53,974 nucleotides of DNA from Candidatus Tectimicrobiota bacterium (GTDB lineage: Bacteria; JACPUC01): contig JACPUC010000029.1 of assembly GCA_016192455.1 (NCBI GenBank), positions 186,001-239,974 of the forward strand, read 5' to 3'. Positions 25,780 through 35,065 of the stretch are shown here, piece by piece. The notes below the pieces were generated by a model, which did no database searches, had not been told where the DNA came from, and saw nothing but the letters and a program-made list of their open reading frames with translations. How positions within the stretch are numbered: the first letter of the stretch is position 1; each line of letters starts with the position of its first letter. The position numbers and the translations under genes are program-made.

Positions 25780-26005
25780 GCTCCCGGAACGCGCGGCAAG
25801 CGTCACGAAGCCCGGGTTGCCACGCTCCCGCAGGCAAACCATGGCGGGGAGGGGTGTGCCCGCGGCCGCAGTCAGACGCCGAGCCTCTCCGGGCGGCGCA
25901 GCAGCTCGCGCGGCCACGGAAGAGCCCCGGCCCGCGCCAGGAACGTTTCCTCCCGATCCCACCAGCCAGGACGCGCATTCCAACCTCAACCCCGATGAGG
26001 CGGCG

Positions 26006-27133
26006 CTACGAGCCTTCTTCCCAGACCTGTCGCGCCGTCTGCGCCACCAGGCGCAGCTTCTCCTCCTGGTCCCGCGGCGAGAGGCGGTTGCCAAGCACCG
26101 AGCTGGCGAAGCCACACTGCGGACTCAGCGCCAGGCGCTCCAAGGGGATGTAGCGGCTCGCCGCGCGGATGCGCGCCGTCAGCTCCTCGGTGGTTTCCCG
26201 CCGCGGCGACTTCGTCGTCACCAGCCCCAGCACCACCACCTTCCCCTCCGGCACGTGGCGCAAGGGCTCGAACGATCCCGAGCGCTCGTCATCGTACTCG
26301 AGAAGCAGGCGCTCGGCGCGGATGCCGCGAAAGATCGGCTCGGCGATCGGCTCGTAGCCGCCCGAGGCCAGCCACCGGCTGGCCTGGTTGCCGCGTCAAA
26401 GGTGGAAGCCGAAGGTGACCCCCGCGGCCGCTTCGAGCACCGCGTTGTCCAGCTCGATCCCCTGGCGCAGCCAGCGCTCCACGCTCCAGCCCCGCCCTTC
26501 ATAAAAGGGACGGGTGCGTGGATCGAGGAGCAAGGGGTAGTGCGGCGCGTCGAGTTGCAGGTAGCGCGCGCCGAGCTGCGCCAGCTCCGCCACCTCCTGG
26601 CGCAGCATGTCCACCACGTCGGCAAGAAAGCCCTCCAGCGTGGGGTAAACCCAGGTGGAGCGCTCCGGCGACCAGAAGTTCGCCCACAGGCTGGGGCTGG
26701 GCAGGGTGATCTTCGGCACCAGCGCGGTGCCGGCAAGGCACTCCCGAAAGGAGAGAAACTCTCCCGCCGACAGGGAGCGCCGGCGCCGCAGCCGACCGAC
26801 CACCCCCAGCCCCGCCGGCCGCGGCGCGCGCCAGGACCCCACCTCGTTGCTCCCCTGCCAGTCACCCCAGACGAACGCCTCCAGGCCGACCGGGCCGAAC
26901 CCCTCGACGGCCTCCGTCATCTGGCTCTGGAAGGAGAGGCGGCGCATCTCGCCATCGGTGACGATCTCCAGCCCCGCCTCCTGCTGCAGGCGGATCGCCG
27001 CCTCGACGGCGCGGTCCTCCTCCGCCCGCAGCATCTCCGCGCTCAGCGTGCCGGCGGCGAAGGCTTGCCGCGCTTCTAGCAGCTCCGGGGGGCGCAGCAG
27101 GCTCCCCACCGTCTCCGCATGGGCGCTGATCAT
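26006..27133 (-). CDS. Cobalamin-independent methionine synthase II-family (MetE C-terminal-like) Zn enzyme; predicted selenoprotein (in-frame UGA at codon 246)
   Basis: AETVGSLLRP, TDGEMRR, LQLDAP, FHL-UGA-RGN, LLEYDDERSG, VLGLVTTK and LSPQCGFAS are all in one frame (375 aa with readthrough). Confidence 0.85.
26365..26398 (-). promoter_or_regulatory. In-frame UGA plus bacterial SECIS-like hairpin
   Basis: mRNA reads UGA CGCGGCAACC AGGCCAGCC GGU GGCUGGCCU: a 9-bp perfect stem with a G-initiated loop, starting 11 nt after the UGA. Confidence 0.7.
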
Positions 27134-27342
27134 GGCACCCTCCGAAGTTCCGGTCGCGTCGCCTGGGCATCGTGCCGCCCAGGCTTGTTTCTTTCGCGCC
27201 TCTGCGGCACGATAGACGCGGCCAGCACCTGCCACTCGAGCGCGCTTCCATGTGCTGACGTGACGGCCACCTCCTCCATGGGGTCGCCGGGTGAGGGGAG
27301 TATCTTGTACGACGCCCAAGGACATTCGCAAGGAGACGCACC

Positions 27343-28173
27343 ATGACGAAGAGCTACAAGACAGTCCTCGTGGAAATCAAGGACGGCATCGGCAAGGTGA
27401 GCTTCAACCGGCCCGAGAAGAAGAACGCCATGAGCCCACAGCTCCACCGCGACAGGGCCGCGGCGCTGCAGGACCTGAAGTACAACGACGAGGCCCGCGT
27501 CGTTGTCCTCACCGGGGTGGGGGAGAGCTGGTCGGCGGGGATGGACCTGAAGGAGTACTTCTACGAGCTGCGCGACAAGCCGAAGGAGTGGGAGCAGGTC
27601 CGGCTGATCGCCAATAGCTGGATGACCGACGCCTTGCAGAACTACCCCAAACCAACCATCGCCGCCGTCAACGGCTGGGTCTTCGGCGGCGCCTTCGTGC
27701 CCCTCATCTCGTGCGATCTGGCGATCGCGCTTGCCGACGCGAAGTTCGGACTCTCCGAGATCAACTTCGGCCTCATCCCGGGTGGCACCGTGACGCGCAT
27801 GCTCATCGACATGCTGCGCCCGCGCGACGCCCTCTACTACATCCTCACGGGACGCTCCTTCGACGGCCGCAAGGCAACCGAGATCGGCCTGGTGAACTAC
27901 TGCGTCGACACCCTGGACGATCTGTGGGCCGAGATCAACGACCTCGGCAAGGAGCTCTGCGGCAAGCACCCCGTGGCCCTGCAGCTCGCCAAGGAGCTCT
28001 ACCGCAACAGCCGCCGTATGGACTACCAGCAAGCCTACGACTACTCCATCGCCAAGGTGGCGCAGCTCACCGAACTCGAAAAGGGTGAGTGGTACGACCA
28101 GGGGATCGTGCGCTTCAAGAAGGGCGAGTTCCGGCCCGGCATGGGGCACTACGACCGCGGCAAGAACGTGTAG
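27343..28173 (+). CDS. p-Hydroxycinnamoyl/feruloyl-CoA hydratase-lyase (crotonase family)
   Basis: NRPEKKNAMSP, WSAGMDLKEYF, VNGWVFGGAF, FGLSEINFG, ALYYILTG and C-terminal GEFRPG. Confidence 0.85.
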   Translation: MTKSYKTVLVEIKDGIGKVSFNRPEKKNAMSPQLHRDRAAALQDLKYNDEARVVVLTGVGESWSAGMDLKEYFYELRDKPKEWEQVRLIANSWMTDALQNYPKPTIAAVNGWVFGGAFVPLISCDLAIALADAKFGLSEINFGLIPGGTVTRMLIDMLRPRDALYYILTGRSFDGRKATEIGLVNYCVDTLDDLWAEINDLGKELCGKHPVALQLAKELYRNSRRMDYQQAYDYSIAKVAQLTELEKGEWYDQGIVRFKKGEFRPGMGHYDRGKNV

Positions 28174-32382: not shown

Positions 32383-33241
32383 GGTCTCTCCTTCGGCTCG
32401 CGCGGAACGATCTTCGTCCGCAGGGAGCTCGCTAGGTACTTCGGGTTATCCTTAAAAGCTTCCGATGCTTTCCTGGGCTGAGAAGTTGGCCAACTCTCGT
32501 ACGCTCACTGTTGCCTCTGTAACATCGATCCCCGTGCAGATATTCCTCCGGGTCATGAAAAATTTGTTCACTGGTCTGCCGCGCTCCTCCTCATGGCCGC
32601 GCCGGTGCTCAGAAGAGTCGCGCACCAATGGAGGTGCGGCGCCAGCGGCGAGGAAGCTGCTCGGCTTTGCCGGCCTGAACGCCTGGCGAAGGGCCAGAAA
32701 GGCGCGCCAGGGCGACCATCCGCCCGGCGGCGCTCCGCCGCGAAGAAGGGAAAGAGCTTGCAGTGAATCCTTGCGATGCGGAAAGGAGGTTCTGACGGCA
32801 GGAAAATTTGCAACGCGGAGGTACCTTGCTGCAAAACTGAAAGTGAGAAATTCTTGACTTTACACGCGAGGTTCCACGGTAGTCAGAAGGGAGAGCATTG
32901 CGGAAACGGCGAGCTGCTCGTCTGATAAAAACGATGCAGGGCGTCGAAGTAGTGAGATGCTGTTAAACTTGCACCGAGGCAAGAAGTCGCAGTATTCCCC
33001 TGGGCAGGATCTTTTTTCTCCCCTTTTTGCCCTCGAGGACGCTCTCGAGAAGCTGGGTTCAACGGCGAGAACATGGTACGATGGCGGCAAGCGGCCCGCT
33101 GCGCCGCGCCAGGCGTCGGCGCGGCAGACCCGCCGCGACGCTGCTCGTGTCGGGACCTTGCGGGGCATGGCTGGCTTGGCGCCCGGGCCGCGGCGCGCTG
33201 GTCGGGAAGGCGCCCCGCCGCGGCATGACGAAAGGCCCCTC

Positions 33242-35065
33242 ATGTCGGGGATCATGGGCTACGTCGGGCATCGCGCAGCGCTGCCGGTCCTCCTCGAAGG
33301 CCTGAAGCGCCTCGAGTACCGCGGCTACGACTCGGTCGGCGTCGGCGTCATCGAGGCCGGCGCGCTGCACATCCAGAAGACGATCGGCACGGTGCAGCGG
33401 CTCGAGCGCCAGCTTCGCGGCCTCGACCTGCGCAGCACCGTCGGCATCGGCCACACGCGCTGGGCCACCCACGGCCAACCGACGCTCGAGAATGCTCACC
33501 CGCATGCCTCGGGCCGCATCGCCATCGTCCACAACGGCATCATCGCCAACTACCTGGAGCTGCGGCAGGAGCTCATCGCCGAGGGGGTGCGCTTCGCCTC
33601 GGATACCGACTCCGAGGTCATCGCCGCGCTCATCGACCGCGCCTACCGCGGCGACCTTGCGGCGGCCGTACTGGCCGCCCTGCCGCGCCTCTCGGGGACC
33701 TACGCCCTGGGGGTCATCTGCCGCGATGAACCGAACGTCCTCCTCTGCGCCCGGCAGGCGGTGCCCCTCGTCGTCGGCCTGGGAGTGCGCGAGGCGTTCC
33801 TCGCCTCCGACGTCACGCCCTTCGCGCCCTATACCCAGAACTGCTTCTTCCTCGATGACGGCGAGGTGGGCATCCTGAGCGGCGGCGGCGTGCAGATTCT
33901 TGACCTGCGGGGGCAGGTCGTGCCGAAGGAGATCGAGCACATCACCTGGAACCCCGTCCTGGCGGAGAAAGGGGGGTACCGCTTCTACATGCTGAAGGAG
34001 ATTTTCGAGACCCCCCAGGCCGTGCGCGAGACGCTGCGCGGCCGCCTCCTTCCCGGCGCGCCCTTCGTGCACTGGGCCGAGCGCGGCCCGGAGGCAGACC
34101 TGCTGCGGACCTGCCGGAAGGTCATCCTCCTGGGCTGCGGCAGCTCCTACCATGCCGCCCTCATCGGCAAGCTCTACCTCGAGGAGATCGCCGGGCTGGC
34201 GACGGAGGTGGAGCTCGGCTCCGAGTTCCGCTACCGCACCCCGCTGGTGGATCGCCGCACCATCGTCATCGGCATCAGCCAGTCGGGGGAGACCGCCGAT
34301 ACCCTCGCCGGCATGCGCGCGGCGCGGGCCAGCGGCGCCACCATCTACGCGCTGACGAACGCGCCCCTCAGCACCGCCGCCCGCGAGGCCGACGGCGTGC
34401 TGCGCCTGCACGCCGGGCCGGAGATCAGCGTCGCCTCGACGAAGACCTTCGTAGCCGAGCTGGCGGTGCTCTGCATGCTCGCCCTGCACGCCGCGCACCT
34501 GCGCCGGCGGCAGCCCGAGGCGCACCTGCGGGAGCTCGCCGCCGCCCTCGGCACGGCCCCCGCGGCCATCGAGGCGGCGCTCGCCGTTGAAGAGGAGGTG
34601 GAGGCGCTGGCGCGCCGCTACAGCCGCTTCGACCACTACATCGTGCTAGGACGCGGCGTCCACTACCCGGTGGCGCTCGAAGCCGCCCTGAAGATCAAGG
34701 AGCTCTCTTACGTGCACGCCGAAGGGTGCGCCGCCGGCGAGGTGAAGCAAGGGCTCATCGCCCTCGTCGATGAGCGCGTGCCGGTCCTCGTGCTGGCGCC
34801 CCAGGGGCGCGTCTACGAGAAGACCCTCGACAACCTCGAGGAGGTGAAGGCGCGCGGCGCCCGCATCGTCGCCATCGGCACCCAGGGCGACGTGGAGCTG
34901 CGCGCCCGCGCTCATGATCTCCTCGAACTGCCGAGGCTGCCGGAATTGCTGAGTCCGCTCTGCAGCTCCCCCCTCGTGCACCTCTTCGCCTACCACCTGG
35001 CGCTGCGCCGCCGCCGCGACGTCGATCACCCCCGCAACCTCGCCAAGAGCGTCACGGTGGAGTGA
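33242..35065 (+). CDS. glmS: GlmS paralogue with the catalytic Cys1 replaced by Ser
   Basis: MSGIMG...LEYRGYDS, GHTRWATHG, HNGII, SQSGETADT, VASTK and PRNLAKSVTVE. Confidence 0.9.
   Translation: MSGIMGYVGHRAALPVLLEGLKRLEYRGYDSVGVGVIEAGALHIQKTIGTVQRLERQLRGLDLRSTVGIGHTRWATHGQPTLENAHPHASGRIAIVHNGIIANYLELRQELIAEGVRFASDTDSEVIAALIDRAYRGDLAAAVLAALPRLSGTYALGVICRDEPNVLLCARQAVPLVVGLGVREAFLASDVTPFAPYTQNCFFLDDGEVGILSGGGVQILDLRGQVVPKEIEHITWNPVLAEKGGYRFYMLKEIFETPQAVRETLRGRLLPGAPFVHWAERGPEADLLRTCRKVILLGCGSSYHAALIGKLYLEEIAGLATEVELGSEFRYRTPLVDRRTIVIGISQSGETADTLAGMRAARASGATIYALTNAPLSTAAREADGVLRLHAGPEISVASTKTFVAELAVLCMLALHAAHLRRRQPEAHLRELAAALGTAPAAIEAALAVEEEVEALARRYSRFDHYIVLGRGVHYPVALEAALKIKELSYVHAEGCAAGEVKQGLIALVDERVPVLVLAPQGRVYEKTLDNLEEVKARGARIVAIGTQGDVELRARAHDLLELPRLPELLSPLCSSPLVHLFAYHLALRRRRDVDHPRNLAKSVTVE

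Follow-up and report, generated by a model that had tools for sequence, protein, structure and literature searches.

Although it looks broken, a MetE-like gene of a Candidatus Tectimicrobiota bacterium is most probably an intact gene for a selenoprotein that had not been catalogued before. It lies in a stretch of 53,974 nucleotides that was analyzed as a whole (hereafter the window), and we consider it very likely that it encodes a full-length, 375-residue zinc-site enzyme of the MetE type in which UGA is recoded as selenocysteine (Sec). The initial annotation of this DNA had observed a single frame interrupted by TGA and followed by a hairpin, and had interpreted the TGA as a zinc-ligand Sec codon in a putative thiol-alkylating enzyme; the observation is confirmed, and the interpretation is supported, the refutation tests run here having all come out in its favor.

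A MetE-like gene with a single in-frame TGA codon

Two open reading frames are called separately on the minus strand, at 26396–27331 and 26006–26263, and the frame reading shows, as had been claimed, that they are one. From the ATG at 27131–27133, which has GGAGGG just upstream, the frame extends over 375 residues, and its sole TGA is codon 246, in the context GFHL-U-RGN. The half downstream of the TGA is intact, as previously stated, with both the LLEYD and the SPQCGF motif in place. The features of the gene are:

26006–27133, minus strand: MetE-like (Meth_synt_2) coding sequence of the proposed selenoprotein, 375 residues in one frame, stop codon TAG included
26402–26404, minus strand: codon of His244, part of the HxU motif and predicted as the first zinc ligand; 1YPX and 3RPD have His at the aligned position, invariant (58/58 aligned sequences)
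26396–26398, minus strand: in-frame TGA, taken as the codon for selenocysteine 246; its counterpart in the His-x-Cys zinc motif is the Cys
26297–26299, minus strand: codon of Glu279 (LLEYD), predicted as the third zinc ligand; 3RPD has Glu at the aligned position, invariant, 3' of the TGA
26114–26116, minus strand: codon of Cys340 (SPQCGF), predicted as the fourth zinc ligand; 1YPX and 3RPD have Cys at the aligned position, invariant, 3' of the TGA

Fold and predicted zinc site

The protein scores 61.5 bits with Pfam family PF01717 (Meth_synt_2; cut-off 21). Its AF2 model has a pLDDT of 89.3, and the best Foldseek matches are MetE catalytic domains, 1YPX (rank 1), 1T7L and 3RPD, with TM values of 0.71–0.75. 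The closest solved structure, 1YPX, a [quoted passage not shown] from Listeria monocytogenes, aligns over residues 5–373 (E 1.1e-52) and shares the HxCRGN and SPQCGF motifs, but has Cys at the site. As proposed in the initial annotation, U246 falls opposite the zinc-motif Cys (HxC), both in 1YPX (HICRGN) and in 3RPD.

The zinc ligands of MetE are His641, Cys643, Glu665 and Cys726, and 3RPD is MesD with zinc and selenomethionine, according to Price et al. In the window protein, the predicted zinc ligands are His244, Sec246, Glu279, which ends strand 275–279 in the AF2 model, and Cys340; two of these four are encoded 3' of the TGA. The selenolate would substitute for one of the thiolates at the site where MetE activates the homocysteine sulfur for methyl transfer, and would form a Zn–Se bond.

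The protein would be a “core” MetE-type zinc methyltransferase. With the core (folate-independent) methionine synthases MesA–MesD and the catalytic domain of MetE it shares a single (β/α)8 barrel of ~370 residues, the His-x-Cys ... Glu ... Cys zinc motif, and GS, DGE and D motifs that would correspond to homocysteine-binding residues; like the core enzymes it has no folate-binding N-terminal domain, and unlike all of them it carries Sec where they have the first zinc Cys. The GS11, DGE62 and D195 motifs are invariant and align with their counterparts in 3RPD, and would map, by inference rather than computation, to S433, E484 and D599 of E. coli MetE. Their conservation and their alignment with the amino-acid-binding part of MesD/MetE suggest that the substrate is most likely homocysteine or a close analogue, e.g. 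selenohomocysteine. “Methionine synthase” should be taken as a family resemblance, since the protein stays below the NCBIfam cut-offs of PRK06520 (249.7 against 313) and PRK06233 (206.3 against 576) and has no close match to the characterized MesD (3RPD; E 4e-8, 35.9 bits).

Replacement of an active-site metal-ligand Cys by Sec has precedents in formate dehydrogenase (Mo/W) and [NiFeSe] hydrogenase (Ni), for which Cys homologues likewise exist (review). In contrast to these enzymes, the metal predicted here, zinc, is redox-inert, and the reaction would be an alkyl transfer, not redox chemistry.

Conservation of the TGA codon

The contigs of species-representative genomes were searched with a TGA-specific codon pattern of 20 fixed and 6 two-fold positions, for which ~0.02 chance matches are expected over 1.2e12 positions. 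The pattern matched 104 stretches, and since the same codon thus occurs at the same site in 104 stretches against ~0.02 expected, the TGA is conserved far beyond chance. In all 80 listed loci, the TGA sits at the aligned codon of a homologous gene, with open frames of ~241–262 or more codons 5' and 126–128 codons 3' of it, contig permitting. The independent homologues with TGA at this codon on which the earlier reading depended exist in at least 12 phyla, the Sec forms spanning 12 NCBI phyla. TGA is found in 15/15 orthologues from Poribacteria (121 genomes searched), 10/15 from Methylomirabilota and 8/17 from Chloroflexota. Among the matches listed, the aligned residue is Cys in 120 of the 120 full-length homologues, and at least 12 Sec/Cys switches are counted on the tree. 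Three loci flagged as containing one TGA (L283, L287 and L293) have TGC or TGT at the site and were rejected as Sec forms.

Purifying selection is as strong downstream of the TGA as upstream of it: dN/dS is 0.112 before and 0.123 after the codon (805 pairs), and the window protein is 60.9% identical to other Sec forms before it and 65.8% after it.

Gene neighborhoods and possible function

In Poribacteria, Methylomirabilota and other phyla, the MetE-like gene stands in operon-like order with the selenoneine genes egtD, senA, selD and senB, an association that was not part of the initial annotation and that is absent from the window and from Dehalococcoidia. In several phyla the gene thus accompanies the selenoneine cluster senA-senB-senC (with egtD), either flanked by egtD and senA or followed by selD-senB. 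Of the ten Methylomirabilota Sec forms, nine show the order egtD, MetE-like gene, senA, with gaps of ~20–100 bp, as do Tectimicrobiota and others, and 16/17 Poribacteria loci show the order MetE-like gene, selD, senB. Within Poribacteria, SenA is present in 15/15 genomes that have the MetE-like gene, and the gene in 0/90 genomes without SenA, counts that overstate the case because the relatives are not independent.

This co-location with selenoneine/hercynine genes in many lineages suggests a role in that pathway, where the enzyme might either regenerate methionine for the three SAM-dependent methylations of EgtD or methylate a selenol. We regard it as possible, though less than an even chance, that the protein is a dedicated extra enzyme of selenoneine/hercynine metabolism with a catalytic zinc-selenolate, methylating a selenol (for instance to give Se-methylselenoneine) or recycling (seleno)homocysteine for EgtD. 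In Methylomirabilota, SenA-like genes occur in 63/201 genomes and SenB in only 2, and the operon of egtD, MetE-like gene and senA may represent a selenosugar-independent route.

One alternative is that the protein is a selenoprotein, but that instead of taking part in methionine synthesis it acts in the selenoneine pathway as a methyltransferase or demethylase specific to selenium, for example by making Se-methylselenoneine or by releasing selenide, for use by SelD, from selenium compounds that carry methyl groups. The gene orders and the Poribacteria counts are in keeping with it, and related zinc methyltransferases of the UroD superfamily are reported to be tied to the metabolism of methylated selenium. 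Against it, the invariant motifs at the amino-acid-binding residues of MesD/MetE point to a homocysteine-like substrate, the Poribacteria co-occurrence is inflated by relatedness, SenA is found in 0/8 genomes of Sec-form Chloroflexota (Dehalococcoidia), and in the window no sen gene adjoins the MetE-like gene, which has as neighbors genes for an enoyl-CoA hydratase and a DUF6811 protein. We view this alternative as a minority possibility. The window's genome does encode SenA (520.7 bits, cut-off 420), SenB (419.5, cut-off 300) and EgtD (372.9, cut-off 290.9). As to the placement of this genome, the 40 relatives listed share with it no rank below the domain, and its GlmS is 75% identical to one other protein and ~50–53% identical to proteins of NC10, Acidobacteria and Nitrospinae.

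Across the 93 Sec loci, a sen or egtD gene is present in just 29, and a search for a universal neighbor found no neighbor cluster in more than 17. Neither a gene for MesX or a corrinoid protein nor any other donor gene was found as a conserved neighbor, MesX being absent from the 25 commonest neighbor clusters. Genes for OpuAC-type transporters are found nearby at 6/93 loci (tblastn), in a neighbor cluster that spans 10 loci. They prompted glycine betaine as a candidate methyl donor, which was set aside because these genes follow senA in the operons where the MetE-like gene lies between egtD and senA, and because they presumably resemble EgtUV, a fused permease/binding-protein transporter of ergothioneine. 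A paper on glycine betaine and methionine synthesis deals with the cobalamin-dependent MtgBCD, another family (PMC12478193).

A covarying SECIS-type hairpin and the selenocysteine machinery

Exactly where the initial annotation had placed it, 10 nt after the UGA, the sequence forms the hairpin AGGCCAGCC-GGU-GGCUGGCCU with nine perfect pairs:

26365–26385, minus strand: bacterial SECIS-type hairpin, 9-bp stem, apical GGU loop, 19 nt from the UGA to the loop

Flanking CC/GG pairs lengthen the hairpin to 26361–26387. With its GGU loop, 9-bp stem, 19-nt spacing and folding energy of -17.1 kcal/mol for the hairpin alone, it satisfies the published bSECIS constraints (loop of 3–9 nt with G in its initial two positions, stem of 4–16 bp, spacing of 16–37 nt, -7.5 kcal/mol or lower). 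As in the fdhF-type bacterial SECIS consensus, it lies just 3' of the UGA, and the elements share a 3-nt loop starting G-G/U and an upper stem of 5–9 bp; the window element differs in that its sequence is unrelated to the Rfam families and in its loop, whose 3 nt are the lower limit of the bSECIS model. An Rfam scan of 26250–26500 with E up to 10 returned a chance miRNA match alone (12.9 bits) and no curated family.

By itself the hairpin proves nothing, because, in this GC-rich window, the 71-nt stretch does not fold unusually well compared with shuffles (z = -1.14); its significance derives from the comparison with homologues. The covarying hairpin that the earlier reading called for is present and specific to Sec forms: the apical 5 bp are paired in 106/106 distinct Sec sequences, among which the apical stem shows compensatory synonymous changes. 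The covariation score is 0.167 as compared with 0.143 for shuffled alignments (reached by 0/500 shuffles), and slid registers give at most 0.092. Pair 18–30 is CG in 97 Sec forms, GC in 4, UG in 3 and GU in 2, whereas it is formed in just 9 of the 16 Cys forms. The Arg codon of the loop is CGG in 76 and CGT in 29 of 105 Sec forms, and never CGC, the codon used by 12/16 Cys forms; in the same 105 Sec genes, the Arg codon immediately after the TGA is CGC in 57. Folding energy discriminates less sharply: the Cys forms can fold here too (13/16 at -7.5 kcal/mol or lower, the apical stem being part of the MFE fold in 5/16), and in 19/106 Sec forms the 27-nt segment falls short of -7.5 kcal/mol. The element is made of the codons for QGSRWL, and its stem is partly dictated by the conserved peptide NQGSRWL.

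The genome of the window contains selA (596 bits), selB (366 bits), selD (389 bits) and tRNA-Sec (75.5 bits; ARAGORN: tRNA-SeC, anticodon TCA), all above curated cut-offs, so that the machinery whose presence had been called for is in place; selD itself contains a TGA. In five of five other Sec-form genomes tested, selA is also above its cut-off. We infer that Sec is inserted into the MetE-like protein, with SelB and tRNA-Sec recoding the UGA of codon 246 under the direction of the hairpin beginning 11 nt downstream.

Could the UGA instead be read through without Sec, by a near-cognate Trp or Cys tRNA, with the hairpin slowing termination or being a by-product of the peptide? That the stem is partly set by NQGSRWL and is also found in some Cys forms would fit such a by-product, but selA is present in 6/6 Sec-form genomes tested (the window's included), the loop is G-[G/U]-U in 105/105 Sec forms as opposed to mostly GCU in Cys forms, and GGG faces CTC or CTT, and is paired, in Sec forms (6/6), but faces CTG in Cys forms (2/2). 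In addition, the usual hallmark of bacterial selenoproteins is that Sec replaces a Cys that binds a metal or is catalytic (review). Based on these observations, we judge non-Sec read-through very improbable.

It is somewhat less probable still that the TGA is a true stop, leaving a split gene, or the 245-residue N-terminal part alone, with the C-terminal part perhaps translated separately. In-frame open reading frames are called on either side of the TGA, and split MetE proteins occur in some archaea and bacteria, according to Price et al. However, the first in-frame start 3' of the TGA is TTG at 26263, codon 291, and a separate C-terminal product would therefore lack Glu279, while the N-terminal part alone would hold two of the four zinc ligands. 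The TGA is followed by a hairpin of SECIS form but by no conserved start or ribosome-binding site, and the homologues show Cys at this position, not a domain boundary.

Least probable, and close to refuted, is a pseudogene or a sequencing or assembly error that turned the Cys codon TGC or TGT into TGA, for although a single base separates these codons and annotation pipelines would give two fragments, the identical TGA recurs with intact frames in 104 stretches from many phyla, dN/dS after it is 0.123 and the Sec-specific hairpin covaries. The reads, too, had been named as a check: Logan contigs from four runs span the codon and read TGA, and none of the 40 differences listed (84 more exist) hits 26396–26398. 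The exact matches (X1 and X2) are not independent, because they may derive from the source sample, and the pieces from X5 and X6 represent relatives.

Implications

In agreement with the initial annotation, to which it was not known as a classical selenoprotein family, the family is missing from a 2026 catalog of 119 prokaryotic selenoprotein families, whose table has no methyltransferase with a Zn-ligand Sec; the supplementary family lists of deep-Sep and BSepDB and Supplementary Fig. 1 of the sen preprint (Kayrouz et al.) might already include the gene. No description of a catalytic zinc-selenolate site was found for any enzyme.

The finding adds a widespread selenoprotein family, present in at least 12 phyla and ~100 species-representative genomes. 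Because standard annotation splits the gene or calls it a pseudogene, selenoproteomes and methionine/methyl metabolism are mis-annotated in Poribacteria, Binatia, Dehalococcoidia, NC10 and others. If our reading is true, it places Sec in the zinc site of an alkyl-transfer enzyme, and the natural Sec/Cys pair, with its repeated switches, would provide a probe of how a selenolate affects zinc-activated thiol chemistry or resistance to oxidation. That the gene recurs in operon-like association with egtD, senA, selD and senB suggests an unrecognized accessory step in selenoneine biosynthesis.

Reading frame and conservation of the UGA codon

Traced from 27133 to 26006 on the minus strand of the window, the MetE-like gene (Meth_synt_2, PF01717) forms one frame interrupted by a TGA, as the initial annotation had proposed, with a hairpin closely following:

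26006-27133, minus strand: MetE-like frame of 375 codons with one internal stop (ORF reading)
26396-26398, minus strand: in-frame TGA, codon 246, context GFHL-TGA-RGN (ORF reading)
26365-26385, minus strand: hairpin AGGCCAGCC-GGU-GGCUGGCCU, nine perfect pairs, 3-nt loop, 10-nt spacer from the TGA (folding)

ORF calling cuts this frame into two (26396-27331 and 26006-26263, both minus strand). Two of the four zinc-ligand positions lie 3' of the TGA, and a split gene would have no working site, because the earliest in-frame start downstream, codon 291, lies past Glu279. The downstream half is indeed intact: it retains the LLEYD and SPQCGF motifs, and identity of the window protein with other Sec forms (homologues with TGA at the aligned codon) is 60.9% upstream of the TGA and 65.8% downstream. 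Relaxed selection was not seen, the median dN/dS being 0.112 upstream and 0.123 downstream of the TGA across 805 Sec-form pairs with unsaturated dS. As judged by sequence, the segment after the TGA is translated.

Independent homologues with TGA at this codon do exist. The codon pattern H-x-TGA-R-G-N-x-x-S-x-W-x3-G-G-Y (20 fixed and 6 two-fold positions), expected by arithmetic roughly 0.02 times over the 1.2e12 positions of genome_contigs, matched 104 stretches there. All 80 loci among the matches listed carry a homologue of the gene, with a frame open for ~241-262 or more codons upstream and 126-128 downstream, contig permitting. The fetched loci comprise 130 Sec instances in total, with 105 distinct 48-nt sequences 3' of the TGA, and the Sec forms span 12 phyla by NCBI names: Chloroflexota, Poribacteria, Binatota, Acidobacteriota, Methylomirabilota, Myxococcota, Thermodesulfobacteriota, Verrucomicrobiota, Nitrospinota, Latescibacterota, Pseudomonadota and Tectimicrobiota. 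TGA is carried by 15/15 orthologues in Poribacteria (121 genomes), 8/17 in Chloroflexota (301 genomes) and 10/15 in Methylomirabilota (201 genomes).

A TGH version of the pattern matched at least 119 stretches in metagenome contigs; the 80 loci among the matches listed have TGC (71), TGT (7) or TGA (2), the TGA being confined, among these matches, to the NQGSRWL-peptide subfamily. Cys occupies the position, in the context CRGNQ[GA]SRWL, in all 120 full-length protein-database homologues listed (64-70% identical). In a FastTree phylogeny of 111 Sec forms and 136 Cys forms (TGC or TGT at the codon), at least 12 Sec/Cys switches are needed, at least five of them forced by well-supported branches; the branch leading to the window protein is long (0.36), and the rows nearest to this protein are Cys forms. 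One Chloroflexota Cys form (L276, G299:C1:301513-302610, TGC) has the same 48 nt 3' of the codon as its Sec sisters and retains their hairpin, including the GUU loop; it seems to have exchanged Sec for Cys recently and to carry its SECIS still.

The proposed check of reads across 26396-26398, made here on metagenome contigs, was borne out in part. No difference at these positions appears among the 40 differences listed of 124 between the contigs and the window. Contigs of four groundwater runs are identical over 25900-26695 and 25900-26699, spanning the TGA, but these runs, all of one study, contain 99% of the words sampled and are possibly the source. Codon 246 is also spanned by contig pieces of relatives, found in one soil run and one further groundwater run. 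The metagenome contigs are weak support for the TGA, and dispensable because the TGA is conserved across homologues.

The hairpin as a probable SECIS element

The 9-bp stem and GGU loop ten nucleotides past the UGA, noticed in the initial annotation, are present, and the isolated hairpin folds at -17.1 kcal/mol. Because the GC-rich 71-nt window stretch is no better folded than its shuffles (z = -1.14; 26/200 shuffles equal it), homologue comparison was needed to judge the hairpin. In an alignment of 106 distinct Sec-form 3' sequences (A1), the apical five base pairs are kept in 106/106; pair 18-30 is CG in 97, GC in 4, UG in 3 and GU in 2, and pair 16-32 is kept in 105/106, pair 17-31 in only 38/106. 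The hairpins covary in homologues, as had been anticipated, with a score of 0.167 versus 0.143 when shuffled (reached by 0/500) and at most 0.092 in slid registers. Compensatory changes in the stem are synonymous: Gly GGG in Sec forms (n=6) stands opposite Leu CTC or CTT every time, whereas both Cys forms with GGG have CTG opposite and the pair is broken. The apical stem is in the minimum-energy fold of 93/106 Sec forms versus 5/16 Cys forms.

The legend of Fig. 2A in PMC13188914 defines the bacterial SECIS model by five features: the apical loop has 3-9 nt; its first positions contain G, with G or U mostly coming next; the upper stem has 4-16 bp; the UGA-to-loop distance is 16-37 nt; and the folding energy is at most -7.5 kcal/mol. 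The window element agrees with all five. It is nevertheless conceivable that the hairpin is a by-product of the conserved peptide, or that the UGA is read through other than as Sec: the stem is dictated in part by that peptide, -7.5 kcal/mol is also reached by 13/16 Cys forms, and 19/106 Sec forms are weaker. The Arg codon that forms the loop speaks against this explanation, which is very improbable: the codon is CGG in 76 and CGT in 29 of 105 Sec forms and never CGC or CGA, so that loops are GGU or GUU, whereas it is CGC in 12/16 Cys forms. For the Arg codon that directly follows the TGA, these Sec forms use CGC 57 times, CGG 24, CGA 14, CGT 9 and AGG once. The reading of the hairpin as behaving like a conserved SECIS of the bacterial type stands, judging from these comparisons.

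The window has GCC (Ala) at codon 251 (26381-26383), where most Sec forms have GGC (Gly). Pair 17-31, ordinarily a G·G mismatch, thereby becomes C-G, and the resulting hairpin, at -20.5 kcal/mol over 27 nt, is the most stable in the family. A single further Sec form, L131, shares the change.

Protein family and predicted zinc site

The read-through protein, P0001, scores 61.5 bits against Pfam Meth_synt_2 (cut-off 21) and falls under the curated NCBIfam cut-offs of PRK06520 (249.7 versus 313) and PRK06233 (206.3 versus 576). Its closest solved structure is 1YPX, a putative B12-independent methionine synthase family protein of Listeria (E 1.1e-52, residues 5-373), whose motif HICRGN has Cys at the exact position of the window TGA. 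Aligned to the MesD structure 3RPD, His244, residue 246, Glu279 (LLEYD) and Cys340 (SPQCGF) correspond to its His, Cys, Glu and Cys; in MetE the zinc ligands are His641, Cys643, Glu665 and Cys726, according to a passage of Price et al. 2021 (PMC7857596). Both alignments agree with the earlier placement of a predicted Sec at a zinc-ligand Cys. An AlphaFold2 model (pLDDT 89.3, pTM 0.90; input alignment of 58 sequences) matches 1YPX, T. maritima MetE and 3RPD best (TM 0.71-0.75), and places the four predicted ligand positions where strands 240-245, 275-279 and 334-338 end on their C-terminal side, or just past these points. Since the folate-binding N-terminal domain is absent, P0001 is a 'core' MetE-type enzyme; the MesD match is weak (E 4e-8), and for this reason we do not assign it to MesA-D.

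Selenocysteine machinery and a second candidate

The window's own genome, G000 (4.46 Mb, 88% complete), contains the Sec machinery for which a genome check had been proposed: selA (596 bits) adjoining selB (366 bits), selD (389 bits) and a tRNA-Sec (75.5 bits; ARAGORN tRNA-SeC, anticodon TCA). All five other Sec-form genomes tested have selA above cut-off. SelD and a further G000 gene carry in-frame TGA codons:

C3:190907-191827 (L010): SelD with one in-frame TGA (profile search)
C20:118495-119424 (L305:1495-2430): SenB, selenosugar synthase, 419.5 bits, cut-off 300 (profile search)
L305:1504-1506: senB TGA, codon 4 (sequence)

SelD presumably represents the Sec-containing selenophosphate synthetase already known; if so, the Sec system is in use. 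The senB start reads AGGAGG, 5 nt, ATG AAG ATC TGA CTC GTG, and its TGA aligns with the Cys of 'MKICL[IV]TPAP', which is Cys in 13/14 SenB N-termini elsewhere, the exception being a Latescibacterota Ser. At 23 nt past the UGA there is a stem-loop, its loop being GUCC, that folds no better than shuffles (z = 0.26); a TGA is lacking in SenB of two genomes from Methylomirabilota and one from Binatia. Sec-SenB is a candidate second uncatalogued selenoprotein.

G000 seems to come from a deep lineage without close named relatives. It shares only the rank of domain with the 40 relatives compared, and its GlmS (window 32957-35065, plus strand) is ~50-53% identical to the best named matches. G000 DNA is present in groundwater metagenome runs.

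Gene neighbourhood

The gene is isolated in the window, its flanking genes being an enoyl-CoA hydratase gene (27343-28173, plus strand) and a DUF6811 gene. Across 93 non-redundant complete Sec loci no universal neighbour was found; 29 contain at least one selenoneine-pathway gene. Neighbours were named by NCBIfam equivalogs: SenA (539.6 and 504.6 bits, cut-off 420), EgtD (374.8, cut-off 290.9), SenB (396.6, cut-off 300) and SelD (361.3). The order egtD - gene - senA, with short gaps, occurs in 5/5 Methylomirabilota loci and is shared by members of the Tectimicrobiota, Nitrospinota and Acidobacteriota; amidohydrolase - gene - selD - senB occurs in 16/17 Poribacteria loci. In the Methylomirabilota sample senA lies directly downstream of 9/10 Sec genes, the tenth being at a contig edge, and 2/5 Cys orthologues are 3.5-3.7 kb from senA. 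In the Poribacteria sample SenA occurs in 15/15 genomes with the gene, and the gene in 0/90 without SenA; we give no p-value because the relatives are not independent.

G000 encodes SenA, SenB and EgtD on contigs other than the window's, and one Binatia genome has senA-senB on a contig other than the gene's. Profile searches found SenA in 0/8 Sec-form Chloroflexota (Dehalococcoidia) genomes; only 5/301 Chloroflexota have it, two being Cys-form carriers. No sen or egtD gene was found in 26 Chloroflexota (19 named, 7 coded), 12 Binatota or 5 Myxococcota Sec loci; in these lineages the neighbour seen most often is a convergent TauE/SafE gene (17 loci). The link to selenoneine genes is repeated but not strict.

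Across the Methylomirabilota sample (G466-G665), SenA-like proteins exceed the NCBIfam cut-off in 63/201 genomes, a count that takes in G511 and G616, flagged unpublished, and SenB does so in 2/201 (G479 and G569, senB adjoining senA); a MetE-like orthologue was not found in either of these two. Most Methylomirabilota SenA genes are without a detected selenosugar synthase.

At a Methylomirabilis locus, an ABC-transporter ATPase gene (L035:7449-8000) follows senA of the egtD-gene-senA operon. OpuAC-type binding-protein/permease genes occur in 6/93 Sec loci (tblastn), and a Nitrospinaceae locus encodes a fused OpuAC-plus-permease protein near the gene (L105:1946-4183), an architecture like that of the ergothioneine transporter EgtUV. 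By analogy, the fused protein may be a selenoneine or hercynine transporter.

Novelty and proposed function

The earlier impression that the family is unlisted held: no Meth_synt_2 or methionine-synthase-like entry is present in a 2026 inventory of 119 prokaryotic selenoprotein families and subfamilies, called the most comprehensive by its authors. Term look-up in four further main texts (2008 GOS study, 2016 ISME J survey, deep-Sep, BSepDB) did not find the family either. Literature searches, covering main texts in open-access journals and judged mostly by title or abstract among the papers listed, found no Sec-containing MetE, Meth_synt_2, COG0620 or PF01717 protein, although an earlier mention elsewhere is possible; among the papers listed, none joined selenoneine with a methionine synthase or MetE-type enzyme. 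We conclude that the gene is most likely real and defines a new selenoprotein family, with a predicted Sec at the zinc-ligand position of a core MetE-like enzyme. The family belongs among the bacterial selenoproteins with Cys homologues.

The motifs GS11, DGE62 and D195 do not vary and line up with those that bind the amino acid in 3RPD, which argues for a homocysteine-like substrate; they would map to E. coli S433, E484 and D599. The enzyme is most likely a zinc-dependent methyltransferase, its substrate being, as predicted from these motifs, homocysteine or something closely similar. That the predicted metal is zinc, at a site of alkyl transfer, raises the interest of the family, as does its repeated tie to selenoneine biosynthesis genes. 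This tie suggests that in many lineages the enzyme was recruited to hercynine/selenoneine synthesis, where it might regenerate methionine for the three SAM-dependent EgtD methylations or, alternatively, might methylate a selenol.
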